NCBI RefSeq assembly: GCF_044324785.1
Contig: NZ_CP172127.1
DNA length: 64,000 nucleotides
DNA from: Escherichia coli
GTDB taxonomy: Bacteria > Pseudomonadota > Gammaproteobacteria > Enterobacterales > Enterobacteriaceae
Reading direction: 5' to 3' (one strand)
Both the position numbers and the translations under genes were made by a program. This document shows, in pieces, positions 1-11,450 of the stretch; the first letter of the stretch is position 1, and every line of letters begins with the position of its first letter. Below the pieces are notes generated by a model. It was not told the origin of the DNA, made no database searches, and saw only the letters and a list, made by a program, of their open reading frames with translations.

Positions 1-300
1 GGGATTTTGATAACTCACGAATGCCGTACCTGTTACGGCATTGTTCATAACGTGGATCCCATCGGTAATGACACCTTCATGACGGAGGCGCTCTATAATG
101 AGTCGGCCAAAATCATCATTACCAACACATCCGAAGAAGATGGCCCGATGGGACAGTTTTGCCACCTGAGCAGCAAAAATTGCTGGCGCACCGCTGGGAA
201 ATGGCCCGATAAACTCCCCAGGCTGAGTGAATTTTTGATGCGGGTTGCGGGACAAAAACTCGGCCAGCAATTCGCCCATAGCGCAGATAGTTATTGTCAC
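1..300 (-). CDS. PfkB-family carbohydrate kinase, N-terminal part only (gene runs off the left edge)
   Basis: Minus-strand frame open from GTG ~300 or ATG 279 down to position 1; translation MGELLAEFL...GPFPSGAPAIF...GCVGNDDFG...AVTGTAFVSY follows the same pattern as the N-terminus of the PfkB kinase at 5835-6797. Absent from the ORF track because no stop lies in the window. Confidence 0.55.
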   Translation of the reverse strand, partial: MTITICAMGELLAEFLSRNPHQKFTQPGEFIGPFPSGAPAIFAAQVAKLSHRAIFFGCVGNDDFGRLIIERLRHEGVITDGIHVMNNAVTGTAFVSYQNP

Positions 301-310
301 AAAACCCCTC

Positions 311-1141
311 TCATTCCTGAAGCCTTTCGCGATTGGACCAGGTAAAGCACTCATTACTGGTATAAAGGATAACGAAATCAGCCGACTGCAATTGTTGCTG
401 ATATTGTTCGTTAATGCTGCGGCTGACGATCACATTTTCTGCTTGATGCAAATGCCCGATAGCAGCCGTTGATGGCGCAGGATCGGCGGCAACGATAACC
501 GTCTTATTCTGGGCATTATCGAAACAGAGCTGCCAGGCAGCGGCAAGTCTGGGAACGTTGATATTTAAAGTACCATCAGCATCCAGATGGCTGATTTCCA
601 GAATGCTATGTGTAATGGTGAAATGCTGAAGTGCCTGTTCGAGAGGTTTTCCGGCCAGTGCGGTGTCGGGGCGCAGCATTTCACTGCCAGCCAGTATTAT
701 TTCGCCATCAATAAACTGATTTGCCAGCAGCGCATGTTCGGGATCGTTGGTGATCAGACGCAGTTTTTTCACTTCGCTGAGCAAAGGAATGATCTTACGG
801 CAGATTGTCCCATGTCCAAGAAATAGCGTGTCACGATCGCGAATTAATCGTGCGCAATGTCGTGCTATTTCCATTTGTTGTGCCAGAGACAACGGCGCGA
901 TCGGTTGTATCGCTTCTGGTTCAGAGGAGAGTGGTGTCGCAATAGCACCGCCAAATGATCGCTTTAAATATCCCTGTTGCTCCAGATAACTGAGATCGCC
1001 GCGGATCGTCACGCCAGAGACACCAAGTTGCGCAGATAAGTCATCAACTTTGATTTCACCCTGGGCGGCAACAATTTCTGCAATTTTTAATCTGCGTTTC
1101 AGTAAGTTAGACGATTTTCTCGGCACGTTAACACTCTTCAT
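311..1141 (-). CDS. DeoR-family transcriptional regulator (sugar operon repressor type)
   Basis: 276-aa ORF with N-terminal helix-turn-helix (LKIAEIVAAQGEIKVDDLSAQLGVSGVTIRGDLSYLEQQG) and a DeoR-like C-terminal domain; divergent from the aldolase/ABC operon; AAAGG 5 nt upstream of the ATG. Confidence 0.7.
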   Translation of the reverse strand: MKSVNVPRKSSNLLKRRLKIAEIVAAQGEIKVDDLSAQLGVSGVTIRGDLSYLEQQGYLKRSFGGAIATPLSSEPEAIQPIAPLSLAQQMEIARHCARLIRDRDTLFLGHGTICRKIIPLLSEVKKLRLITNDPEHALLANQFIDGEIILAGSEMLRPDTALAGKPLEQALQHFTITHSILEISHLDADGTLNINVPRLAAAWQLCFDNAQNKTVIVAADPAPSTAAIGHLHQAENVIVSRSINEQYQQQLQSADFVILYTSNECFTWSNRERLQE

Positions 1142-1310
1142 TGGCCTTTAATGCGTAACACTATAGCCCCTTGTATTTTTCTTTGAAAGTTATCCTTCAA
1201 TAATATCGACAATTCGAAAAGAAAAGCATGGGCTAAAAATCGCAACGAAAATATCTTAATACATTGAAAAATAAATGAATAACTTAATATTTATGCAGAT
1301 GTACTATTGG

Positions 1311-1329
1311 TTTCACTTGCAAAGTGAAA
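1311..1329. promoter_or_regulatory. Candidate operator: palindrome TTTCACTT-gca-AAGTGAAA in the divergent promoter region
   Basis: Perfect 8-bp inverted repeat with 3-bp spacer read directly in the AT-rich regulator/aldolase intergenic region; function inferred. Confidence 0.3.
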
Positions 1330-1413
1330 AACAAATTAAGTTATTTTTTGTAAGTTATTTTGATGATATTCGACATGCATCACGCTTTTTGCCGCTTTTG
1401 CTGTGTTAGTTTG

Positions 1414-1428
1414 CTTTCAAAATGAAAG
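1414..1428. promoter_or_regulatory. Candidate operator: palindrome CTTTCA-aaa-TGAAAG sharing the TTTCA/TGAAA half-sites
   Basis: Second inverted repeat with the same half-site, ~55 bp upstream of the aldolase start; function inferred. Confidence 0.3.
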
Positions 1429-1455
1429 TGAAGATTCTGTTTCTTCATTTTGTAA

Positions 1456-2337
<882 letters not shown>

Positions 2338-2372
2338 TACGTTGTACCCTACAAAAACAATGAGGATTGTTT

Positions 2373-3263
2373 ATGAAAAATATTAAATTACTTGGTTCAG
2401 CTATGTTGGTGAGCCTGGCATTATTCTCGCAAAGTTCATTGGCAAAAGAGTATAAAATCGGTGCGTCATTATTAACACAGCAACATCCTTTCTATATTGA
2501 TCTTGCGAATGCCATGAAAGAAGAGGCAAAAAAAGACAATGTCAATTTAAGTGTCTCTATTGCCAATCAGGATTTAAACAAACAACTTTCTGATGTTGAG
2601 GATTTTATTACTAAAAAAGTGGATGCCATTATTATCTCTCCGGTTGATTCGAAAGGCGTCCAGGCGGCGATAATTAAAGCCGATAAGGCCGGTATTCCCG
2701 TTATCACCGTCGACGTCGCTGCGGAAGGCGTTCCGGTCGTATCGCATGTTGCGACCGATAACTACGCGGGAGGCGTTGAAGCAGGCAAGTTAATGGGCAA
2801 ACTTTTGAATGGCAAAGGTACTGTAGCCATTATTTCTTATCCGGCACTACAATCGGTGGTTGCGCGCGTTGATGGTTTTAAGAAAGGGTTAAGCGAGACA
2901 CCGGATATTAAAATTGTTGCTGAACAACCAGGTATAACGCGGGCTGAAGCGTTAACGACTGCGCAAAACATTATGCAGGCCAACGCCAACCTGAATGGTC
3001 TGTTTGGCTTTGGTGATGATGCGGCGTTGGCAGCGGTTATCGCAGCGAAATCTGCGCATAACGACAACATCAAAATCATTGGTTTTGACGGCATGAAAGA
3101 AGCGCGTGATGCCGTTGACAGTGAAAAAACGTTTGCGGCCGTGATTCGGCAATATCCCGATCAAATGGGGGCTAAAGCCATTGATGCTGCTGTTGATCAC
3201 CTCAATGGTAAACCGGTAGAAAAAATGATCCCGGTACAACCCGGCGTTTATACAGGTAAATAA
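2373..3263 (+). CDS. Periplasmic sugar-binding protein of an ABC transporter (RbsB-like)
   Basis: ORF track starts at TTG 2367; ATG at 2373 with GAGGA 7 nt upstream is the likelier start. Signal peptide MKNIKLLGSAMLVSLALFSQSSLA; type I periplasmic binding protein pattern; visibly AT-rich. Confidence 0.8.
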   Translation: MKNIKLLGSAMLVSLALFSQSSLAKEYKIGASLLTQQHPFYIDLANAMKEEAKKDNVNLSVSIANQDLNKQLSDVEDFITKKVDAIIISPVDSKGVQAAIIKADKAGIPVITVDVAAEGVPVVSHVATDNYAGGVEAGKLMGKLLNGKGTVAIISYPALQSVVARVDGFKKGLSETPDIKIVAEQPGITRAEALTTAQNIMQANANLNGLFGFGDDAALAAVIAAKSAHNDNIKIIGFDGMKEARDAVDSEKTFAAVIRQYPDQMGAKAIDAAVDHLNGKPVEKMIPVQPGVYTGK

Positions 3264-3280
3264 TAAACATCTTCATTTCA

Positions 3281-3307
3281 CAACAAAACGTTATCGACGT
3301 TTTGTTG
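3281..3307 (+). other. Intercistronic stem-loop between the binding-protein and ATPase genes
   Basis: Perfect 10-bp inverted repeat CAACAAAACG-ttatcga-CGTTTTGTTG, 17 bp upstream of the ATPase start. Confidence 0.45.
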
Positions 3308-3323
3308 TGACACCGAGGTCATT

Positions 3324-4823
3324 ATGACGGATGTTATTCTTGATGTTTCGCATATTGCGAAGACATTTGGTCATGTTCAGGCATTAAAAAATATTACACT
3401 CTCTTTACGTAAAGGGCGGGTGCATACTTTATTAGGCGAGAATGGTGCCGGTAAATCGACATTAATGAAAATACTCGCCGGTGTTTATCCGCCAACCCAG
3501 GGAACGATAACACTACGTGGTGAAACCATCACCATTAATAATCCGCAGCATTCTCGCCAGTTAGGGATTGCGATTATTTTTCAGGAACTGAGCCTGAGTA
3601 ATAATATGACCGTGGCGGAAAATATCTATGCCAATAATGAACCGCGACGTTTTGGCATTATTAATGATAAAAAAATGCTCGCAGATTGCCAGAATCTCCT
3701 CGCGGAACTGGGCATCCCTCTGGATCCGCTGGAAATGGTCGGCAATATGTCGATGGCACATAGGCAACTGGTAGAAATTGCCAAAGCCTTAAGCTATGCA
3801 GCGGATGTCGTGATTATGGATGAACCGACATCTTCGCTAAGTGATAATGAAGCAGAGATTCTGTTTAACATTATTGAGAAATTAAAGCAGCGAGGTTGTG
3901 CGGTTATTTATATCTCTCATCGCATGGATGAAATTATGCGGATTTCAGATGATATTTCGGTGATCCGCGACGGTGAGTATATCGCTACGCATGAAAAGAA
4001 AAACAGTGATATCCAGCATTTGATTGCCCAAATGGTTGGTCGGGAAATGAAAAATATTTGGCCAGCACGTCTTGGGGAAAAGCCGGATGAAAATGTTCCT
4101 GCAAAACTGGAAGTAAAAAACCTTTCCCATCCCTCGCTTTTTAAAGAGGTCAGTTTCGCTGTGCGTCCGGGGGAAGTCCTTGGATTTTTTGGCCTGGTGG
4201 GAGCCGGGCGTTCCGATGTGATGAAGGCGCTATTTGGCCTCGTTTCGTATCACGGAACTGTGTTGATTGATGGTAAGGAAGTCAGGATCGCTAATCCCAA
4301 ACAGGCTATTGATCATGGCATTGCTTTTGTGACCGAAAACCGCAAGGAAGAAGGGTTAGTGCTGATGCACGACGTCAATATGAACACGCACCATGTGGCG
4401 TTTCAATATAACGCTTCGCGGATGGGACTCATCAATCACCGACAAGAAGAGGCGAAGACGCTGCAATCTATTGCCAGAATGAACACTAAAGTGAGTTCTG
4501 TACATCAGGCAGTGGGAGCGCTGAGCGGCGGTAATCAACAGAAAATCGTGTTATCGAAGTGGCTGGAGAAAACTCCGCGTATTTTATTGCTCGATGAGCC
4601 AACGCGCGGAGTGGATGTCGGCGCAAAATTTGAAATCTATAACGTGATACGTCAACTGGCTGCGGCAGGGACAGCAATTATTCTGGTGTCCTCTGAACTG
4701 CCAGAAGTCATGGCACTTAGCGATCGTCTGGTGGTAATGCGTAATAAAACGATTGCCGATATTTATTCATGTGAAAATTTAACGCAGACACAGGTAATGA
4801 CCGCTGCAACAGGAGTACGTTAA
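3324..4823 (+). CDS. Sugar ABC transporter ATP-binding protein with two nucleotide-binding domains (RbsA/MglA-like)
   Basis: 499-aa ORF with two Walker A motifs (GENGAGKST and GLVGAGRS) and two LSGGxQQ-type signatures; AT-rich. Confidence 0.85.
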   Translation: MTDVILDVSHIAKTFGHVQALKNITLSLRKGRVHTLLGENGAGKSTLMKILAGVYPPTQGTITLRGETITINNPQHSRQLGIAIIFQELSLSNNMTVAENIYANNEPRRFGIINDKKMLADCQNLLAELGIPLDPLEMVGNMSMAHRQLVEIAKALSYAADVVIMDEPTSSLSDNEAEILFNIIEKLKQRGCAVIYISHRMDEIMRISDDISVIRDGEYIATHEKKNSDIQHLIAQMVGREMKNIWPARLGEKPDENVPAKLEVKNLSHPSLFKEVSFAVRPGEVLGFFGLVGAGRSDVMKALFGLVSYHGTVLIDGKEVRIANPKQAIDHGIAFVTENRKEEGLVLMHDVNMNTHHVAFQYNASRMGLINHRQEEAKTLQSIARMNTKVSSVHQAVGALSGGNQQKIVLSKWLEKTPRILLLDEPTRGVDVGAKFEIYNVIRQLAAAGTAIILVSSELPEVMALSDRLVVMRNKTIADIYSCENLTQTQVMTAATGVR

Positions 4824-5813
4824 ATGACAGAGAAAACTCTTGCCAGTCCGAAACCTTCGGAAATACCCATTGCAAATAATTTTAAAAAAGTCTTCAGGCA
4901 ATATGGCGGTATCCTCAGTGGAATGGTGGTGTTAATCATTCTGTTCAGTTTTATTAATGACAGTTTTTTTACTGCCAATAACATTACTAATATTATTCTT
5001 CAGGTTTCGATAATTGCAATTACCGCCTATGGAATGACTTATGTACTTTTGCTTGGCGATATTGATTTATCGGTCGGTTCAACCATTGCATTGATTGGCA
5101 CATTTGCTGCGCTTGGGGCTTCATGGGGAATTCCATTTATTTTATTGGTCCCATTATCCATTATTGCAGCCCTGGCTCTGGGGATGATAAATGGTGGCTT
5201 GACGGCTATAGCGGGTATCCCTTCGTTTATTGTCACCGTTGCTACTATGGGGATCTTCCGTGGTATCGCTTATATAGTGACCGATGGTATGCCCATCATG
5301 ATTAAAGATGATGCCTTTCTGGCGCTGGGGAATGGAGAATTTCTCTATATACCTATTCCAATCTGGATATTAATTATCTTATTGCTGATTAACCATTTCA
5401 TTCTTACTAAAACAACCTTTGGACGAAAAATTTATATCACTGGTGGTAATAAAGAAGCGGCAGTTTATTCAGGGATAAATGTCACCCGCTTGAAAATAAA
5501 AGTCTTTATGATTACAGCTGTGCTGGCAGGTATCAGCGGGATGATCCTCGCGTCACGCCTTTATTCCGGGCAACCGAATTCCGCGTTGAGCTACGAACTG
5601 GATGCTATTGCCGCGGCTGTACTGGGAGGCACCAGCCTGAACGGCGGCTATGGAACCGTGGTGGGGACGGTGATCGGCGCATTAACCATCGGCGTTATTA
5701 ATAATGGCATGAACTTAATGAATGTTCCCTATTTTTACCAGATGGTGGTTAAAGGATTAGTCATTCTTGTAGCCGTTTATTTTGACGTAAGAAATAAAAG
5801 AAAACGCAGCTAA
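4824..5813 (+). CDS. Sugar ABC transporter permease (RbsC/AraH-like)
   Basis: 329-aa hydrophobic ORF; ATG directly follows the ATPase TAA, implying translational coupling. Confidence 0.85.
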   Translation: MTEKTLASPKPSEIPIANNFKKVFRQYGGILSGMVVLIILFSFINDSFFTANNITNIILQVSIIAITAYGMTYVLLLGDIDLSVGSTIALIGTFAALGASWGIPFILLVPLSIIAALALGMINGGLTAIAGIPSFIVTVATMGIFRGIAYIVTDGMPIMIKDDAFLALGNGEFLYIPIPIWILIILLLINHFILTKTTFGRKIYITGGNKEAAVYSGINVTRLKIKVFMITAVLAGISGMILASRLYSGQPNSALSYELDAIAAAVLGGTSLNGGYGTVVGTVIGALTIGVINNGMNLMNVPYFYQMVVKGLVILVAVYFDVRNKRKRS

Positions 5814-5834
5814 TCATTTCAAGGAATTAATCAT

Positions 5835-6797
5835 ATGAGTAAGGTCTTCACAATTGGAGAAATTCTGGTTGAAATTATGGCGAGTAAAATCGGCCAGCCA
5901 TTTGATCAACCAGGTATCTGGAACGGCCCTTATCCCAGTGGTGCGCCCGCTATTTTTATCGACCAGGTGACACGTCTTGGCGTTCCGTGCGGCATCATTA
6001 GTTGTGTGGGGAATGATGGCTTTGGTGATATTAATATACATCGTCTGGCTGCTGACGGTGTGGATATCAGGGGGATTTCAGTCTTACCTCTGGAAGCTAC
6101 CGGGAGTGCCTTTGTTACTTATCATAACTCTGGCGATCGCGATTTTATTTTTAATATCAAGAATGCCGCTTGCGGTAAATTATCGGCGCAGCATGTTGAT
6201 GAAAATATTCTGAAGGACTGTACCCATTTTCATATTATGGGTTCATCCCTGTTTTCATTCCATATGGTAGACGCAGTAAAGAAAGCGGTAACCATTGTAA
6301 AGGAGAATGGTGGCGTTATTTCTTTCGACCCTAATATTCGGAAAGAGATGCTCGATATTCCAGAAATGCGTGACGCCCTCCACTTTGTTCTTGAGTTAAC
6401 AGATATCTATATGCCCAGCGAGGGAGAAGTGTTGCTCTTGTCGCCACACTCGACACCGGAGCGTGCAATCGCTGGTTTTCTTGAAGAAGGTGTTAAAGAG
6501 GTGATTGTGAAGCGCGGCAATCAAGGTGCCAGTTACTACTCCGCGAATGAGCAGTTTCATGTTGAGAGCTATCCGGTGGAAGAAGTTGACCCGACCGGTG
6601 CGGGAGACTGCTTTGGTGGCGCGTGGATTGCCTGCCGCCAGCTAGGGTTTGACGCCCATCGGGCATTACAATATGCCAACGCCTGCGGTGCACTGGCGGT
6701 AACCCGACGTGGTCCAATGGAGGGAACGTCTCGCCTTGCGGAAATCGAAGCGTTCATCCAGCGCCATGACATGTCCATTCGGGAAGCAGCACAATGA
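5835..6797 (+). CDS. PfkB-family sugar kinase (ribokinase/fructokinase-like)
   Basis: 320-aa ORF; AAGGA upstream; N-terminal glycine-rich motif and C-terminal DPTGAGDCFGGAW anion-hole/catalytic motif typical of the PfkB family. Confidence 0.8.
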   Translation: MSKVFTIGEILVEIMASKIGQPFDQPGIWNGPYPSGAPAIFIDQVTRLGVPCGIISCVGNDGFGDINIHRLAADGVDIRGISVLPLEATGSAFVTYHNSGDRDFIFNIKNAACGKLSAQHVDENILKDCTHFHIMGSSLFSFHMVDAVKKAVTIVKENGGVISFDPNIRKEMLDIPEMRDALHFVLELTDIYMPSEGEVLLLSPHSTPERAIAGFLEEGVKEVIVKRGNQGASYYSANEQFHVESYPVEEVDPTGAGDCFGGAWIACRQLGFDAHRALQYANACGALAVTRRGPMEGTSRLAEIEAFIQRHDMSIREAAQ

Positions 6798-7840
6798 AAA
6801 ACGAAATTTGGTCGTGGATTGGCGATCTCTCGCAGGTTGCCGGAATTAAACACTATGAGTTACGTAGTGGCAGAGCAAAGGGGACAGAAGCGTTTGATGT
6901 CCGTACCGGTGCGGGACTGGCATTTACGGTGGTAAAAGATCGCGCGCTGGATATTGCATGGGCCAGCTACAAGGACACTGCGCTCTCTTTTATCACCCCC
7001 AACGGCATTGTCGCCCCCGCTTTTTTTGAGTCTCAGGGCAACGGGTTTTTACGTAGCTTCTACGCGGGGTTACTGACTACCTGCGGACTTAGCTACATTG
7101 GCACGCCCTGTGAGGATGACGGAGAAACGCTGGGGTTACACGGGCGTTTGGCTGCGACTCCAGCAGAAGAGGTGGGGTATCGCACAGAACGGACCGACGA
7201 CGGCATTGAATTTGTCATCAATGGCAAAGTACGGGAAACACGATTGTTCGGTGAAAATCTGACGCTGGAAAGGACCATTCGCTGCCGCTATGGCGAAAAT
7301 GTGCTGCGCATTGAAGACAAGGTGACTAATCATGGTTTCACCCGCCAGCCGCTGCAAATTCTTTATCACTTTAATTACGGCTGGCCTTTATTATCGCCAC
7401 AGGCAGAAATTTTGCTGTCGGCTAAAAGCGTAACGCCACGAACTCCGCATGCGGCGGAAGGGATAGCCAGTCATCTGGAGATTTGTACCCCACAGCCCGG
7501 TTTTGACGAGCAGGTTTACTATCTCACGTTGAATAGTGACAGTCAGGGGATGAGTAAAGTTGCGCTGGTGAACGCTGAACTGGGGTGGGGAATTTACGAG
7601 AAATTCGACACCATGCAGCTACCCAACTTTATCCAGTGGAAAAATTTAGGCGCGGGTGAATATGTTATGGGGCTGGAGGTCAGCAATAGTTTTCCTGACG
7701 GTCGTGATAAAGAACGAGCGCAGGGGCGTCTGCCCTTTATAGAGCCAGGGGAAACAAAGACATACTGCTTTGAGCTGGGAATTGTTGATGGCGATGCTGA
7801 AATTAGCGCGTTGAAAGCGGAAATTGCAAGCTACCGTTAG
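6794..7840 (+). CDS. Aldose 1-epimerase (mutarotase)-like protein, uncharacterised
   Basis: 348-aa ORF overlapping the kinase stop by ATGA; contains LYHFNYGWP and GLEVSNSFPD...PGE motifs reminiscent of galactose mutarotase-fold proteins; assignment from motif recall only. Confidence 0.5.
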   Translation: MKNEIWSWIGDLSQVAGIKHYELRSGRAKGTEAFDVRTGAGLAFTVVKDRALDIAWASYKDTALSFITPNGIVAPAFFESQGNGFLRSFYAGLLTTCGLSYIGTPCEDDGETLGLHGRLAATPAEEVGYRTERTDDGIEFVINGKVRETRLFGENLTLERTIRCRYGENVLRIEDKVTNHGFTRQPLQILYHFNYGWPLLSPQAEILLSAKSVTPRTPHAAEGIASHLEICTPQPGFDEQVYYLTLNSDSQGMSKVALVNAELGWGIYEKFDTMQLPNFIQWKNLGAGEYVMGLEVSNSFPDGRDKERAQGRLPFIEPGETKTYCFELGIVDGDAEISALKAEIASYR

Positions 7841-7850
7841 CTAACGGCAA

Positions 7851-7886
7851 TAAAAACGCCGGGCAGCGTTAACAGGCCCGGCGTTG
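7851..7886 (-). terminator. Rho-independent terminator downstream of accC, shared with the convergent sugar operon
   Basis: 10-bp stem AACGCCGGGC/GCCCGGCGTT with 11-nt loop, followed on the minus strand by TTTTTATT. Confidence 0.5.
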
Positions 7887-7931
7887 ATTACGTTCTTTGC
7901 TAAGCGCGATGAAAACACCGCGCGTCACAAA

Positions 7932-9281
7932 TTATTTTTCCTGAAGACCGAGTTTTTTCTCCAGATAGTGGATGTTAGTGCCACCATGCTGGAAGTTCTC
8001 GTCATTCATGATGCGGATCTGCAGATCAACGTTGGTTTTGATACCGTCGATGATCAGCTCCTGCAGCGCATTCTTCATGCGGGCAATCGCCACGTCACGG
8101 TTTTCACCGTAGCAAATCAGCTTACCGATCATTGAGTCATAGTACGGCGGTACGGTGTAGCCCGCGTAGATATGAGACTCCCAACGCACGCCAAAACCGC
8201 CTGGTGCGTGGAAACGGGTGATTTTGCCCGGGCTTGGCAGGAAGGTGTTCGGATCTTCGGCGTTGATACGGCATTCCACCGCATGGCCGCGAACGTGAAC
8301 TTCTTCTTGCTTGATCGACAGCGGTTGACCGGCAGCGATACGCAGCTGTTCTTTGATCAGGTCAACGCCGGTGATCATTTCGGTAACCGGATGTTCTACC
8401 TGAATACGGGTGTTCATTTCGATGAAATAGAACTCGCCGTTTTCGAACAGGAACTCGAAAGTACCTGCGCCGCGATAGCCGATATCAACACACGCTTTAG
8501 CACAACGTTCGCCGATGTAGCGACGCAGTTCCGGAGTAATGCCCGGTGCTGGTGCTTCTTCGACCACTTTCTGGTGGCGGCGCTGCATGGAGCAGTCACG
8601 TTCCGCCAGATAGATAGCGTTGCCCTGACCGTCAGCCAGTACCTGAATCTCGACGTGGCGAGGATTTTCCAGGTATTTCTCCATGTAAACCATATCGTTG
8701 CTGAAAGCAGCTTTCGCTTCCGCACGGGTCATGGAGATGGATTGTGCCAGTTCAGCGTCGCCGCGCACTACGCGCATACCGCGACCGCCGCCGCCGCCGG
8801 AGGCTTTGATAATTACCGGATAACCAATGCGTTTAGCAATGGCGCGGTTTTTATCCATATCGTCGCCCAGCGGGCCGTCAGAACCCGGTACGCAAGGAAC
8901 GCCAGCTTTTTTCATCGCCGCGATTGCGGATACTTTGTCGCCCATCAGGCGAATGGTTTCTGCTTTCGGGCCAATGAAGATAAAGCCGGAGCGTTCAACC
9001 TGTTCAGCAAAGTTGGCGTTCTCGGAGAGGAAGCCGTAGCCCGGATGGATTGCTACTGCGCCGGTGATTTCAGCGGCGCTGATGATTGCCGGGATGTTCA
9101 GATAACTTTTTACTGACGGAGCAGGGCCGATACAGACCGTTTCATCTGCCAGTAATACGTGTTTTAAATCGCGATCCGCGCTGGAGTGCACAGCGACAGT
9201 CTTGATGCCCAATTCTTTACAGGCACGAAGAATACGCAATGCAATCTCGCCGCGGTTGGCAATAACAATTTTATCCAGCAT
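7932..9281 (-). CDS. accC: Biotin carboxylase subunit of acetyl-CoA carboxylase
   Basis: 449-aa protein from [16 protein letters not shown] (ORF track has a 13-codon N-terminal extension); GAGG RBS; sequence recognised as E. coli AccC. Confidence 0.95.
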
Positions 9282-9762: not shown

Positions 9763-10525
9763 GAGTGGGTTCCGTACTCTTTGTTTAGTGTGATTGTGAC
9801 AGGCGTTTCACCGCCGTCTGTAAAGCGTATGCCCCGACAGCTGTATGCATAGCGATAAATTCCAGCAGGCCGGGACGCCGGTCTATTTTGCCCCAGAGTG
9901 TCAATGTTAGACTTGACGGACATTGTGCAGCGATCTGCTGCTATCCTCCGGCAAAAAACAAAATATACCTTCGTTGCGCCAATGTCACCTTTTCCGCAGC
10001 GCAAAAACTGCGTCAGGGAGGACGAGGTCGCACATTATAACGATTTCGTAGCAATTGGCAGCTAAATACTGGTCTTATCAGGGAAGATAATCAACAGCTA
10101 ACATGTAAATAACCTTCAACACCGTGTAATTTGCAACAAGCCGCACAATTCACGAAATTAGCGCCATCATCGACGGAACTTCTTATAACGTAAGGCTAAA
10201 AGCTGTAAAGCCAGCCCTGCGAAGATGAGGGGCTGCAATGAGATAATCTTCACAGACCACAAATAATGTAGGGATGCCAGGATCGCGACAAGATCGACGA
10301 CATTACGCAGCGGTTGCTGGGGATTGCCCAATTTTCACTGCATCGTCTGGATAAATGTGAATGCTAAAGCACGCAAAATCAACCGCCTGACAATGCTCAG
10401 CATGAAATAGGTTTAACTGGTTAATTTGTAATCAAACAAAATCAGATTATTCCCCCCATTTTGCAGAAGGTAAACTGTTTTGTCAGGCGGCAGTACGGCT
10501 ATGTGATGCACTGCCGCGTGACAAT

Positions 10526-10554
10526 AAAAAAGCCGATTTGGTAGCAAAATCGGC
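10526..10554 (-). terminator. Rho-independent terminator after the 276-aa gene
   Basis: Stem GCCGAT(TTG)/(CAAA)ATCGGC followed on the minus strand by a T-run (plus-strand AAAAAA at 10526-10531); a second hairpin GCGGCAGT...ACTGCCGC lies at ~10487-10517. Confidence 0.5.
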
Positions 10555-10619
10555 TTCGGTGAGTTTGCAGCATTCATCACATACTCCGACAAGCTTTTTC
10601 AAGCATGACGGAGGTTGCG

Positions 10620-11450
10620 TTAATGCAAGGTTTCTACCCAGGGATAAAAGTGACCGTTACGGCGGATGAATATCTGTGTTGTCAGAGGATGGTCATCCTC
10701 ACGGAAGCATTGTTCTGTTAACTGTCGTAATGCGCTGAGATTTGCTGGCTGATCATTGTGGGTGAAAAACAGTTTTCCTCTGGAGGGAACTGTCACTAAC
10801 AGGTCGCCGCATTCAGGATCGGGTGATTGCACCCAAAGATCGTCAATGAGCATCAGACTGGGCTCATAAGTACCCCCTGCGGAGATAACGGCAACTTTTC
10901 CATCGTTTGCGCCGGTATCAACGATTTCAGCCGTAACTTCCGGCAATATTTGCTTCAAATTACTGATGGCTTGTTCGCGGTCAATGGTCACTTCGCAGCG
11001 CATCAGATAGCGCATGGTTTCGCTACCGTCTTCAGCAAACAGGATAATTAACTCATCGTTAAAGTCTTCCCAGGCAAAATCAAGCGAGGCGTTGAGGACC
11101 TCTGGATCAGACTCATACTGGCTAAGCTGTTGGCGAACGGTATCCAGCCAGGCTTTTTCTTTAATCACCGGGACAATACAGCGCCCGGTCGGCAGCATTT
11201 CTGCAAGCTGTTTCAGCATATCTGCAGCCACTTCTTCCAGCGGGTCTGGTGCGGCTTGATAACGTTTGTAAGCATCATCAAGGGTGATTTCCACCGTTTG
11301 GTGACCCGTATCAATGCGCATCAATTTATGGTCAGTCGAAATCATGACTTTCCAGTTTGGATGATGTTGTACAACTTCCTGACCAAGGTGTTCGACGAAA
11401 GCTGTCAGGCTAACCGCTTTTCCCGTTAACCGATTGAATAATGATTTCAA
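10620..11450 (-). CDS. Hypothetical protein, 276 aa, unknown function
   Basis: Long uninterrupted ORF; TTG start with GAGAGGG ~8 nt upstream, 37 bp downstream of acuI in the same orientation; own terminator; acidic, no predicted membrane segment; I cannot assign a family by recall. Confidence 0.6.
   Translation of the reverse strand: MKSLFNRLTGKAVSLTAFVEHLGQEVVQHHPNWKVMISTDHKLMRIDTGHQTVEITLDDAYKRYQAAPDPLEEVAADMLKQLAEMLPTGRCIVPVIKEKAWLDTVRQQLSQYESDPEVLNASLDFAWEDFNDELIILFAEDGSETMRYLMRCEVTIDREQAISNLKQILPEVTAEIVDTGANDGKVAVISAGGTYEPSLMLIDDLWVQSPDPECGDLLVTVPSRGKLFFTHNDQPANLSALRQLTEQCFREDDHPLTTQIFIRRNGHFYPWVETLH

Follow-up and report, generated by a model that had tools for sequence, protein, structure and literature searches.

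Does the short gap between a sugar-utilization locus and accC, the gene for biotin carboxylase, hold a terminator that both neighbours share, and does it mark the place where the sugar locus joined the Escherichia coli chromosome? The question arose from an initial annotation of 64,000 nucleotides of the E. coli contig NZ_CP172127.1 (assembly GCF_044324785.1), hereafter called the window, in which a 91-bp gap with a 10-bp stem and a second hairpin had been described. Both structures were located in the sequence. The gap covers window positions 7841–7931 and is exactly 91 bp long. It is bounded by the TAG stop codon (7838–7840) of a DUF4432/aldose-1-epimerase-family gene on the + strand (6794–7840, 348 amino acids; Pfam and RefSeq name), the last gene of the sugar operon, and by the stop codon (7932–7934, TAA on the − strand) of accC, which runs convergently on the − strand (7932–9281). 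As RNA of the accC strand, the gap folds with −41.8 kcal/mol (z = −4.0), and none of 200 shuffled sequences was equally stable. Perfect 10-bp inverted repeats with loops of 3–12 nt were counted at about 10 sites of the 64-kb window compared with 0.4 expected from shuffles, so that such hairpins are roughly 25 times commoner in the window than by chance. The more specific pattern GCCGG-N(3–25)-CCGGCNTTTT was found once in the window, at the gap, against an expectation of 0.05. Searches of Rfam at a permissive threshold returned chance-level matches only, and the gap matches no RNA family. An open reading frame at 7884–8135 (+), antisense to accC, was regarded as spurious.

The window contains, at positions 1–7840, the right-hand 7.8 kb of an 8.7-kb island for D-tagatose utilization, whose left end lies outside the window. 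Its genes encode part of a PfkB kinase, a DeoR regulator, a GatY-like class II aldolase, a sugar-binding protein, an ABC ATPase, a permease, a second PfkB kinase and the DUF4432/aldose-1-epimerase-family protein; the names are those given by RefSeq for strain N3, whose sequence here matches the window at 100% identity, and by Pfam (DUF4432, PfkB). In N3, the island adds eight genes, 8.7 kb in all, to the interval between yhdT and accC. Its G+C content is 42–46%, compared with approximately 54% in accBC. By gene content, order and site, as annotated in strains N3, 81009, NC101 and ST95-32, it corresponds to the tag cluster of E. coli Nissle 1917 (EcN), which has the same eight genes in the same order at the same accC/yhdT site and a similarly low G+C content (Ha et al., 2022; PMC9720028). 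Over the island, B2 strains are 97.6–97.8% identical to the window. In Nissle 1917 the cluster allows growth on D-tagatose, for which it supplies an ABC transporter, a tagatose kinase and a class II tagatose-bisphosphate aldolase. D-tagatose induces the cluster, and carriers make up 93% of the B2 genomes, 73% of F and 7% of B1 (Ha et al., 2022; PMC9720028). The same region corresponds to c4013–c4018 of CFT073 (PMC2831201) and to GR 23 (accC..yhdT) of BEN2908 (PMC12928451). By analogy with Nissle 1917, for which this capacity was shown experimentally (PMC9720028), the strain of the window may grow on D-tagatose. Junctions or terminators are not described in PMC9720028, PMC2831201 or PMC12928451, and the word 'terminator' is absent from the first of these. 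Inside the tag operon, a perfect hairpin with a 13-bp stem and a 5-nt loop (window 3279–3309) occupies the 60-bp gap between the genes for the sugar-binding protein and the ABC ATPase. It may be an intra-operon stabilizer or attenuator of a kind frequent after binding-protein genes.

In E. coli K-12 MG1655, yhdT-panF-prmA directly follow accC after a spacer of 108 bp and the sugar locus is absent, as expected for an insertion relative to K-12. The suggestion that the right boundary of the island lies within the gap was also borne out: megablast similarity to K-12 starts at position 7932, with the first base of the stop codon of accC, and a side-by-side reading of the sequences placed the limit there too. 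At the opposite end of the island, similarity to K-12 ends inside the start codon of yhdT, which is ATG in K-12 and GTG in the island strains. The 108-bp spacer of K-12 carries a terminator of its own, AAAAGGCCGG-ATTTT-CCGGCCTTTTTT, i.e. GGCCGG...CCGGCC followed by a T-run, so in the window accC is indeed followed by a non-K-12 terminator and its 3′ flank is not identical to that of K-12 through the hairpin. When the K-12 spacer was compared with either island junction in both orientations, no significant similarity beyond that of shuffled sequences was detected. No direct repeat connects the left and right junctions of the island, and a target-site duplication, for which a check had been suggested, was found at neither junction, because the entire 108-bp spacer is replaced and not split. 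The spacer comes in two non-alignable forms, a 108-bp 'empty' form with its own terminator and an 8.7-kb 'island' form. A simple scan for sigma-70-like promoters found none in the gap and none upstream of yhdT in either allele.

To follow the two forms beyond E. coli, one genome per species was scanned with the DUF4432 protein, and further homologue look-ups were added. The full island was present at the same yhdT/accC site in the divergent Escherichia E69, in Superficieibacter electus, in Klebsiella spallanzanii and in Enterobacter sp. ENT03, and the look-ups added Citrobacter farmeri and two assembled read sets. Island proteins are 72–94% identical between genera, similar to the less conserved of the neighbouring core genes. 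An empty spacer of 108–110 bp with conserved sequence was found in Salmonella, in Klebsiella variicola and in two Enterobacter; invariant in these spacers are the GGCCGG terminator and the yhdT leader GTACAATCCCCGCTTTCTTCA...AGGGACAAAAAATG. In Serratia, outside the family, accC and yhdT are likewise adjacent, with a AAAGGCCGG...CCGGCCTTTTT terminator between them. Conservation of the empty form between genera and as far as Serratia makes it the ancestral one and the island form the derived one. Escherichia, Klebsiella and Enterobacter each include both forms, and the comparison indicates that the island form is derived yet old. Consequently, the 'novel context' ascribed to accC by the initial annotation holds in so far as the context differs from that of K-12, but the arrangement is old and common to several genera, and the location of the island has been published. 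At the left junction (locus positions 1550–1644, outside the window), yhdT of island-bearing E. coli begins with GTG, not ATG. The 92 bp upstream of yhdT are conserved among the island-bearing genera (GCCGTAGAATTGCCCGTTTCTCG); they resemble the conserved leader of the empty allele only loosely and are in places closer to Serratia.

What, then, ends transcription of accBC in the island form? The larger of the two structures in the gap, hairpin A (7855–7885, − strand), consists of the arms AACGCCGGGC (7855–7864) and GCCCGGCGTT (7876–7885), which are 100% complementary, with G-C at eight of the 10 pairs. Its loop of 11 nt is longer than in typical terminators, and a predicted inner helix of 2 bp may shorten it. 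On the accC strand the stem runs into the U-tract UUUUUAUU (7849–7856), the first two U of which close the stem, and hairpin and tail together fold with approximately −19.7 kcal/mol. A terminator scan of the gap returned a site on the − strand only, in line with the initial reading of a T-run terminator for accC, and hairpin A sits 48 nt past the accC stop codon. Several features by which intrinsic terminators are recognized are present on this strand, namely a G+C-rich stem, a U-tract, a stop codon upstream on the same strand and a conserved structure. A counterpart of hairpin A lies at the same place in all seven lineages, always with the T-run on the accC side. The consensus structure obtained with RNAalifold from 11 sequences is exactly the 10-bp stem of hairpin A, with compensatory changes at four of the 10 pairs; 78% of the cells of the alignment pair in register, compared with 34–53% when the partner column is slid by one to three positions. 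As the independent lineages are few and most of the stem is simply conserved rather than covarying, the covariation is moderate, not overwhelming. Across the lineages, position, polarity and stem of hairpin A are nevertheless clearly conserved.

Hairpin A with its U-tract would form a canonical Rho-independent terminator that ends accBC transcripts approximately 85 nt past the accC stop codon, just before they could enter the convergent D-tagatose operon in antisense direction. We infer from sequence and comparative data that hairpin A terminates accBC transcription. It is highly probable that the gap forms the 3′ untranslated flank of accBC where the island allele is present, that hairpin A is its Rho-independent terminator and that this allele stands in place of the K-12 spacer.

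The second structure, hairpin B (7904–7923, − strand), begins 8 nt past the accC stop codon. The GCGCG...CGCGC arms that had been noted at first lie at 7904–7908 and 7919–7923; on the accC strand the stem extends to eight pairs, GCGCGGUG-UUUU-CAUCGCGC, including one G-U pair and closing on a UUUU loop. No U-tract follows hairpin B on either strand. Every island lineage has a stable hairpin in this place, past the accC stop codon and ahead of hairpin A, with a genus-specific sequence. The segments concerned, 40–49 nt long, gave z-scores of −1.5 to −4.5 against dinucleotide shuffles, with p ≤ 0.016 in six of the seven lineages. Hairpin B would therefore represent a second structured element of the accC 3′ untranslated region that lacks a terminator tail, and it probably stabilizes the 3′ end or assists termination. 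That the two-hairpin, U-tailed 3′ untranslated region of the island allele gives rise to a stable 3′-UTR-derived small RNA appears very improbable. Such an RNA would find a suitable source in the approximately 85 nt with two structure-conserved hairpins and a U-tail, where the K-12 allele offers only 16 nt before its terminator, but there is no Rfam match, and as the sequence of hairpin B varies between genera, no conserved seed region is evident.

Hairpin A and the accBC terminator of K-12 are alike in presumed task and in class of position. Both are G+C-rich hairpins followed by a U-run on the accC strand soon after the accC stop codon, and their tails are similar (TTTTTATT). They differ in sequence, with no significant alignment between them, and in distance from the stop codon (48 nt for hairpin A, 16 nt for the K-12 terminator). 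Furthermore, hairpin A is preceded by hairpin B, which has no counterpart in K-12, and is followed by a convergent gene, whereas the K-12 terminator is followed by the yhdT-panF leader. A search of the literature on the K-12 accBC terminator or a panF promoter retrieved nothing relevant.

These likenesses leave room for a different history, in which hairpin A is the ancestral accC terminator in diverged form, the island came in directly behind this terminator, and hairpin B was inserted later between the stop codon and hairpin A. The stem cores differ by a single swapped pair (GGCCGG/CCGGCC in K-12, CGCCGG/CCGGCG in hairpin A) and the tails are nearly identical (TTTTTTATT against TTTTTATT); in addition, GCCGGATTTTC is common to K-12, Citrobacter and one of the assembled read sets. 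When an nhmmer profile of four empty-allele spacers was run against 160 kb of island-bearing loci on both strands, its top match fell on the C. farmeri hairpin A, correctly oriented, but with E = 0.25 this match is not significant. Pairwise scores under permissive alignment reached only z = 0.9–3.1 against dinucleotide shuffles, the likeness of the yhdT leaders (GTAGAAT...CCCGTTTCT and GTACAAT...CCCGCTTTCT) is not significant either, and G+C-rich stems with T-runs come to look alike by convergence. The resemblance to the K-12 terminator is thus suggestive only, and we regard descent from it as a possibility to be taken seriously, though not the favoured one. Wholesale replacement of the spacer remains the preferred account.

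Is the terminator shared with the sugar operon? Between convergent genes, bidirectional intrinsic terminators have an A-tract, a hairpin and a U-tract, an architecture that has reportedly been described by full-length RNA profiling. The gap resembles these terminators in having one palindromic hairpin between convergent genes with an A-tract on one side, and differs from them in lacking the second U-tract: in every lineage examined, the accC side alone has one. In E. coli the + strand tail past the stem core, UUGAUUAC, contains only four U in eight positions, and in the six other lineages two or three T in eight were counted, while the U-run on the accC side was always strong. A U-tract on both strands, by which a bidirectional terminator is recognized, was accordingly not found, and the T-run of the supposed shared terminator belongs to the accC strand only, in E. 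coli as in the six other lineages. By the usual criteria, hairpin A is best classified as a one-way terminator for accBC; on the transcript of the tag operon it could possibly act as a weak or assisted stop.

We also weighed the stronger proposal, that hairpin A is bidirectional and ends the + strand D-tagatose transcript as well. The palindrome folds on both strands and starts 14 nt past the stop codon of the epimerase-family gene, an A-tract precedes it on the + strand, and no other terminator-like site for the + strand is present in the gap. On the other hand, the consensus scan returned no + strand terminator, the + strand tails are poor in U, as described above, and the + strand fold of the gap is less exceptional (z = −2.4 against shuffles, compared with −4.0 on the accC strand). 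Natural variation speaks on both sides. Certain variants, C7864T of the ST131 type and that of Enterobacter ENT03, maintain or improve pairing on the + strand, so selection on the sugar-operon transcript is possible. However, the asymmetry between G-U and A-C pairs favours the accC strand for hairpin B of E. coli and hairpin A of C. farmeri, and the + strand for ST131-type E. coli and Enterobacter ENT03; as it is contradictory between lineages, it was not used to assign a selected strand. A further argument in favour comes from the strong induction of the operon by D-tagatose (PMC9720028), since insulation of the essential accC from antisense transcription would then be useful. Taken together, we consider termination in both directions rather unlikely.

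Within E. coli the two forms of the spacer divide the species. Of 5426 complete genomes, 1414 have the full-length 91-bp island junction and seven more a partial or disrupted one, together about a quarter. All 1421 carry the island, with a median of one place per genome, and the junction never occurs in an island-free genome. The K-12 spacer was found in 4004 of the 5426. Both forms together account for 5425 of the 5426 genomes, so that the polymorphism is a clean one of two forms. Variation of the junction within E. coli amounts to 0–3%. In the ST131-type junction, the loop-closing pair and one loop base of hairpin A are changed, and in ST95 and NC101 one loop base of hairpin B; the window has the less common haplotype, whose junction is identical in O111:H8 and in further strains outside the ST131 and ST95 types. 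In strain N64, an isolate from cerebrospinal fluid and one of the seven partial cases, an IS200C element (positions 5276–5990 of the N64 locus, equivalent to approximately 7890 of the window) lies directly beside hairpin A between the tag operon and accC.

How does the island move between lineages? The window is identical to strain N3 over positions 1–8381, a stretch that spans island and junction and reaches 450 bp into accC, and the following 862 bp (8382–9243) differ from N3 at 24 positions (approximately 2.8%). This sharp change from identity to divergence places a crossover roughly 450 bp inside accC, with an approximate breakpoint at 8382. The coding flanks of island strains differ from K-12 by 1–2%, without an excess near the junction. 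Empty and island forms are exchanged through homologous recombination in the conserved flanking genes, and in this way the island travels between E. coli lineages. For a given strain, the functional 'boundary' then lies in accC and not in the gap.

Neither an integrase nor a transposase, a tRNA gene or a terminal repeat was found at the island, whose eight genes all belong to sugar metabolism, transport or their regulation. This bears on the idea that the hairpins are an insertion scar, i.e. a repeated extragenic palindrome or the end of a mobile element. In E. coli, the 8-mer ATTGCCGT does flank the island as an inverted pair, immediately beyond its terminal genes, both of which face outward, and one strain carries an IS200C beside hairpin A. 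However, 58 of 500 shuffles gave a match as good as the 8-mer or better, other genera do not keep it, the two ends of the island have no direct repeat, the island has no integrase, transposase or tRNA gene, and the 91 bp form a single-copy sequence confined to this locus. An origin of the hairpins as an insertion scar is thus extremely improbable. REP/BIME elements in particular were ruled out, as the junction occupies a median of one place per genome and is found in island-bearing genomes only. A boundary of a mobile element is effectively refuted, the K-12 spacer being replaced without duplication and without an integrase.

A second difference from N3 and K-12 was seen on the other side of accBC. 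At 10460–11307 of the window, 848 bp lie between accB and acuI in place of the 101 bp found in N3 and K-12. The segment occurs in 675 of 5426 E. coli genomes, with a best match of only 98.4% identity, so that the exact version is present in none of the complete genomes searched. An open reading frame at 10620–11450 (−) has no Pfam match; in other strains the surroundings of the segment are annotated as 'hypothetical protein', 'DUF1444' or a yedZ-like pseudogene. Upstream of accB, msrQ/yedZ-like genes and/or a type II dehydroquinase gene are present in Salmonella, Citrobacter, Klebsiella, Enterobacter and Serratia, msrP-like genes are visible in Salmonella and Citrobacter, and E. coli B2 strains have only a yedZ-like pseudogene there. 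The differing gene content among genera marks this place as another variable spot in the neighbourhood.

Overall, at the border of a published accessory island, the gap holds what seems to be an ordinary intrinsic terminator, an element of a largely known kind that is itself uncharacterized. The least ordinary remainder consists of the two-form spacer found across genera, the structure-conserved but sequence-free hairpin B, and the altered leader and start codon of yhdT. One might go further and regard the accC-yhdT spacer as an old cross-genus polymorphism of two forms, in which the island form brings regulatory ends of its own that alter expression of fatty-acid and pantothenate-uptake genes; we consider this improbable. 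If it were true, one such end would be the two-hairpin 3′ untranslated region of accC, which might be the source of a stable RNA or shield the essential accBC operon from the convergent, strongly inducible one; the other would be the altered yhdT-panF leader, in E. coli with GTG as start codon.

The significance of the results is modest. They provide base-level limits for a published and clinically discussed D-tagatose island that is typical of B2 and F E. coli, and they come down to three points: the whole spacer is replaced, accBC appears to have a different, conserved terminator in the island form, and crossovers in the flanking core genes carry the island between E. coli lineages. These limits should be useful for annotation, for the design of clean deletions and for PCR typing of the locus. 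Without invoking a new mechanism, the accC-yhdT spacer provides a small example of a presence/absence form that is common to genera of the Enterobacteriaceae.
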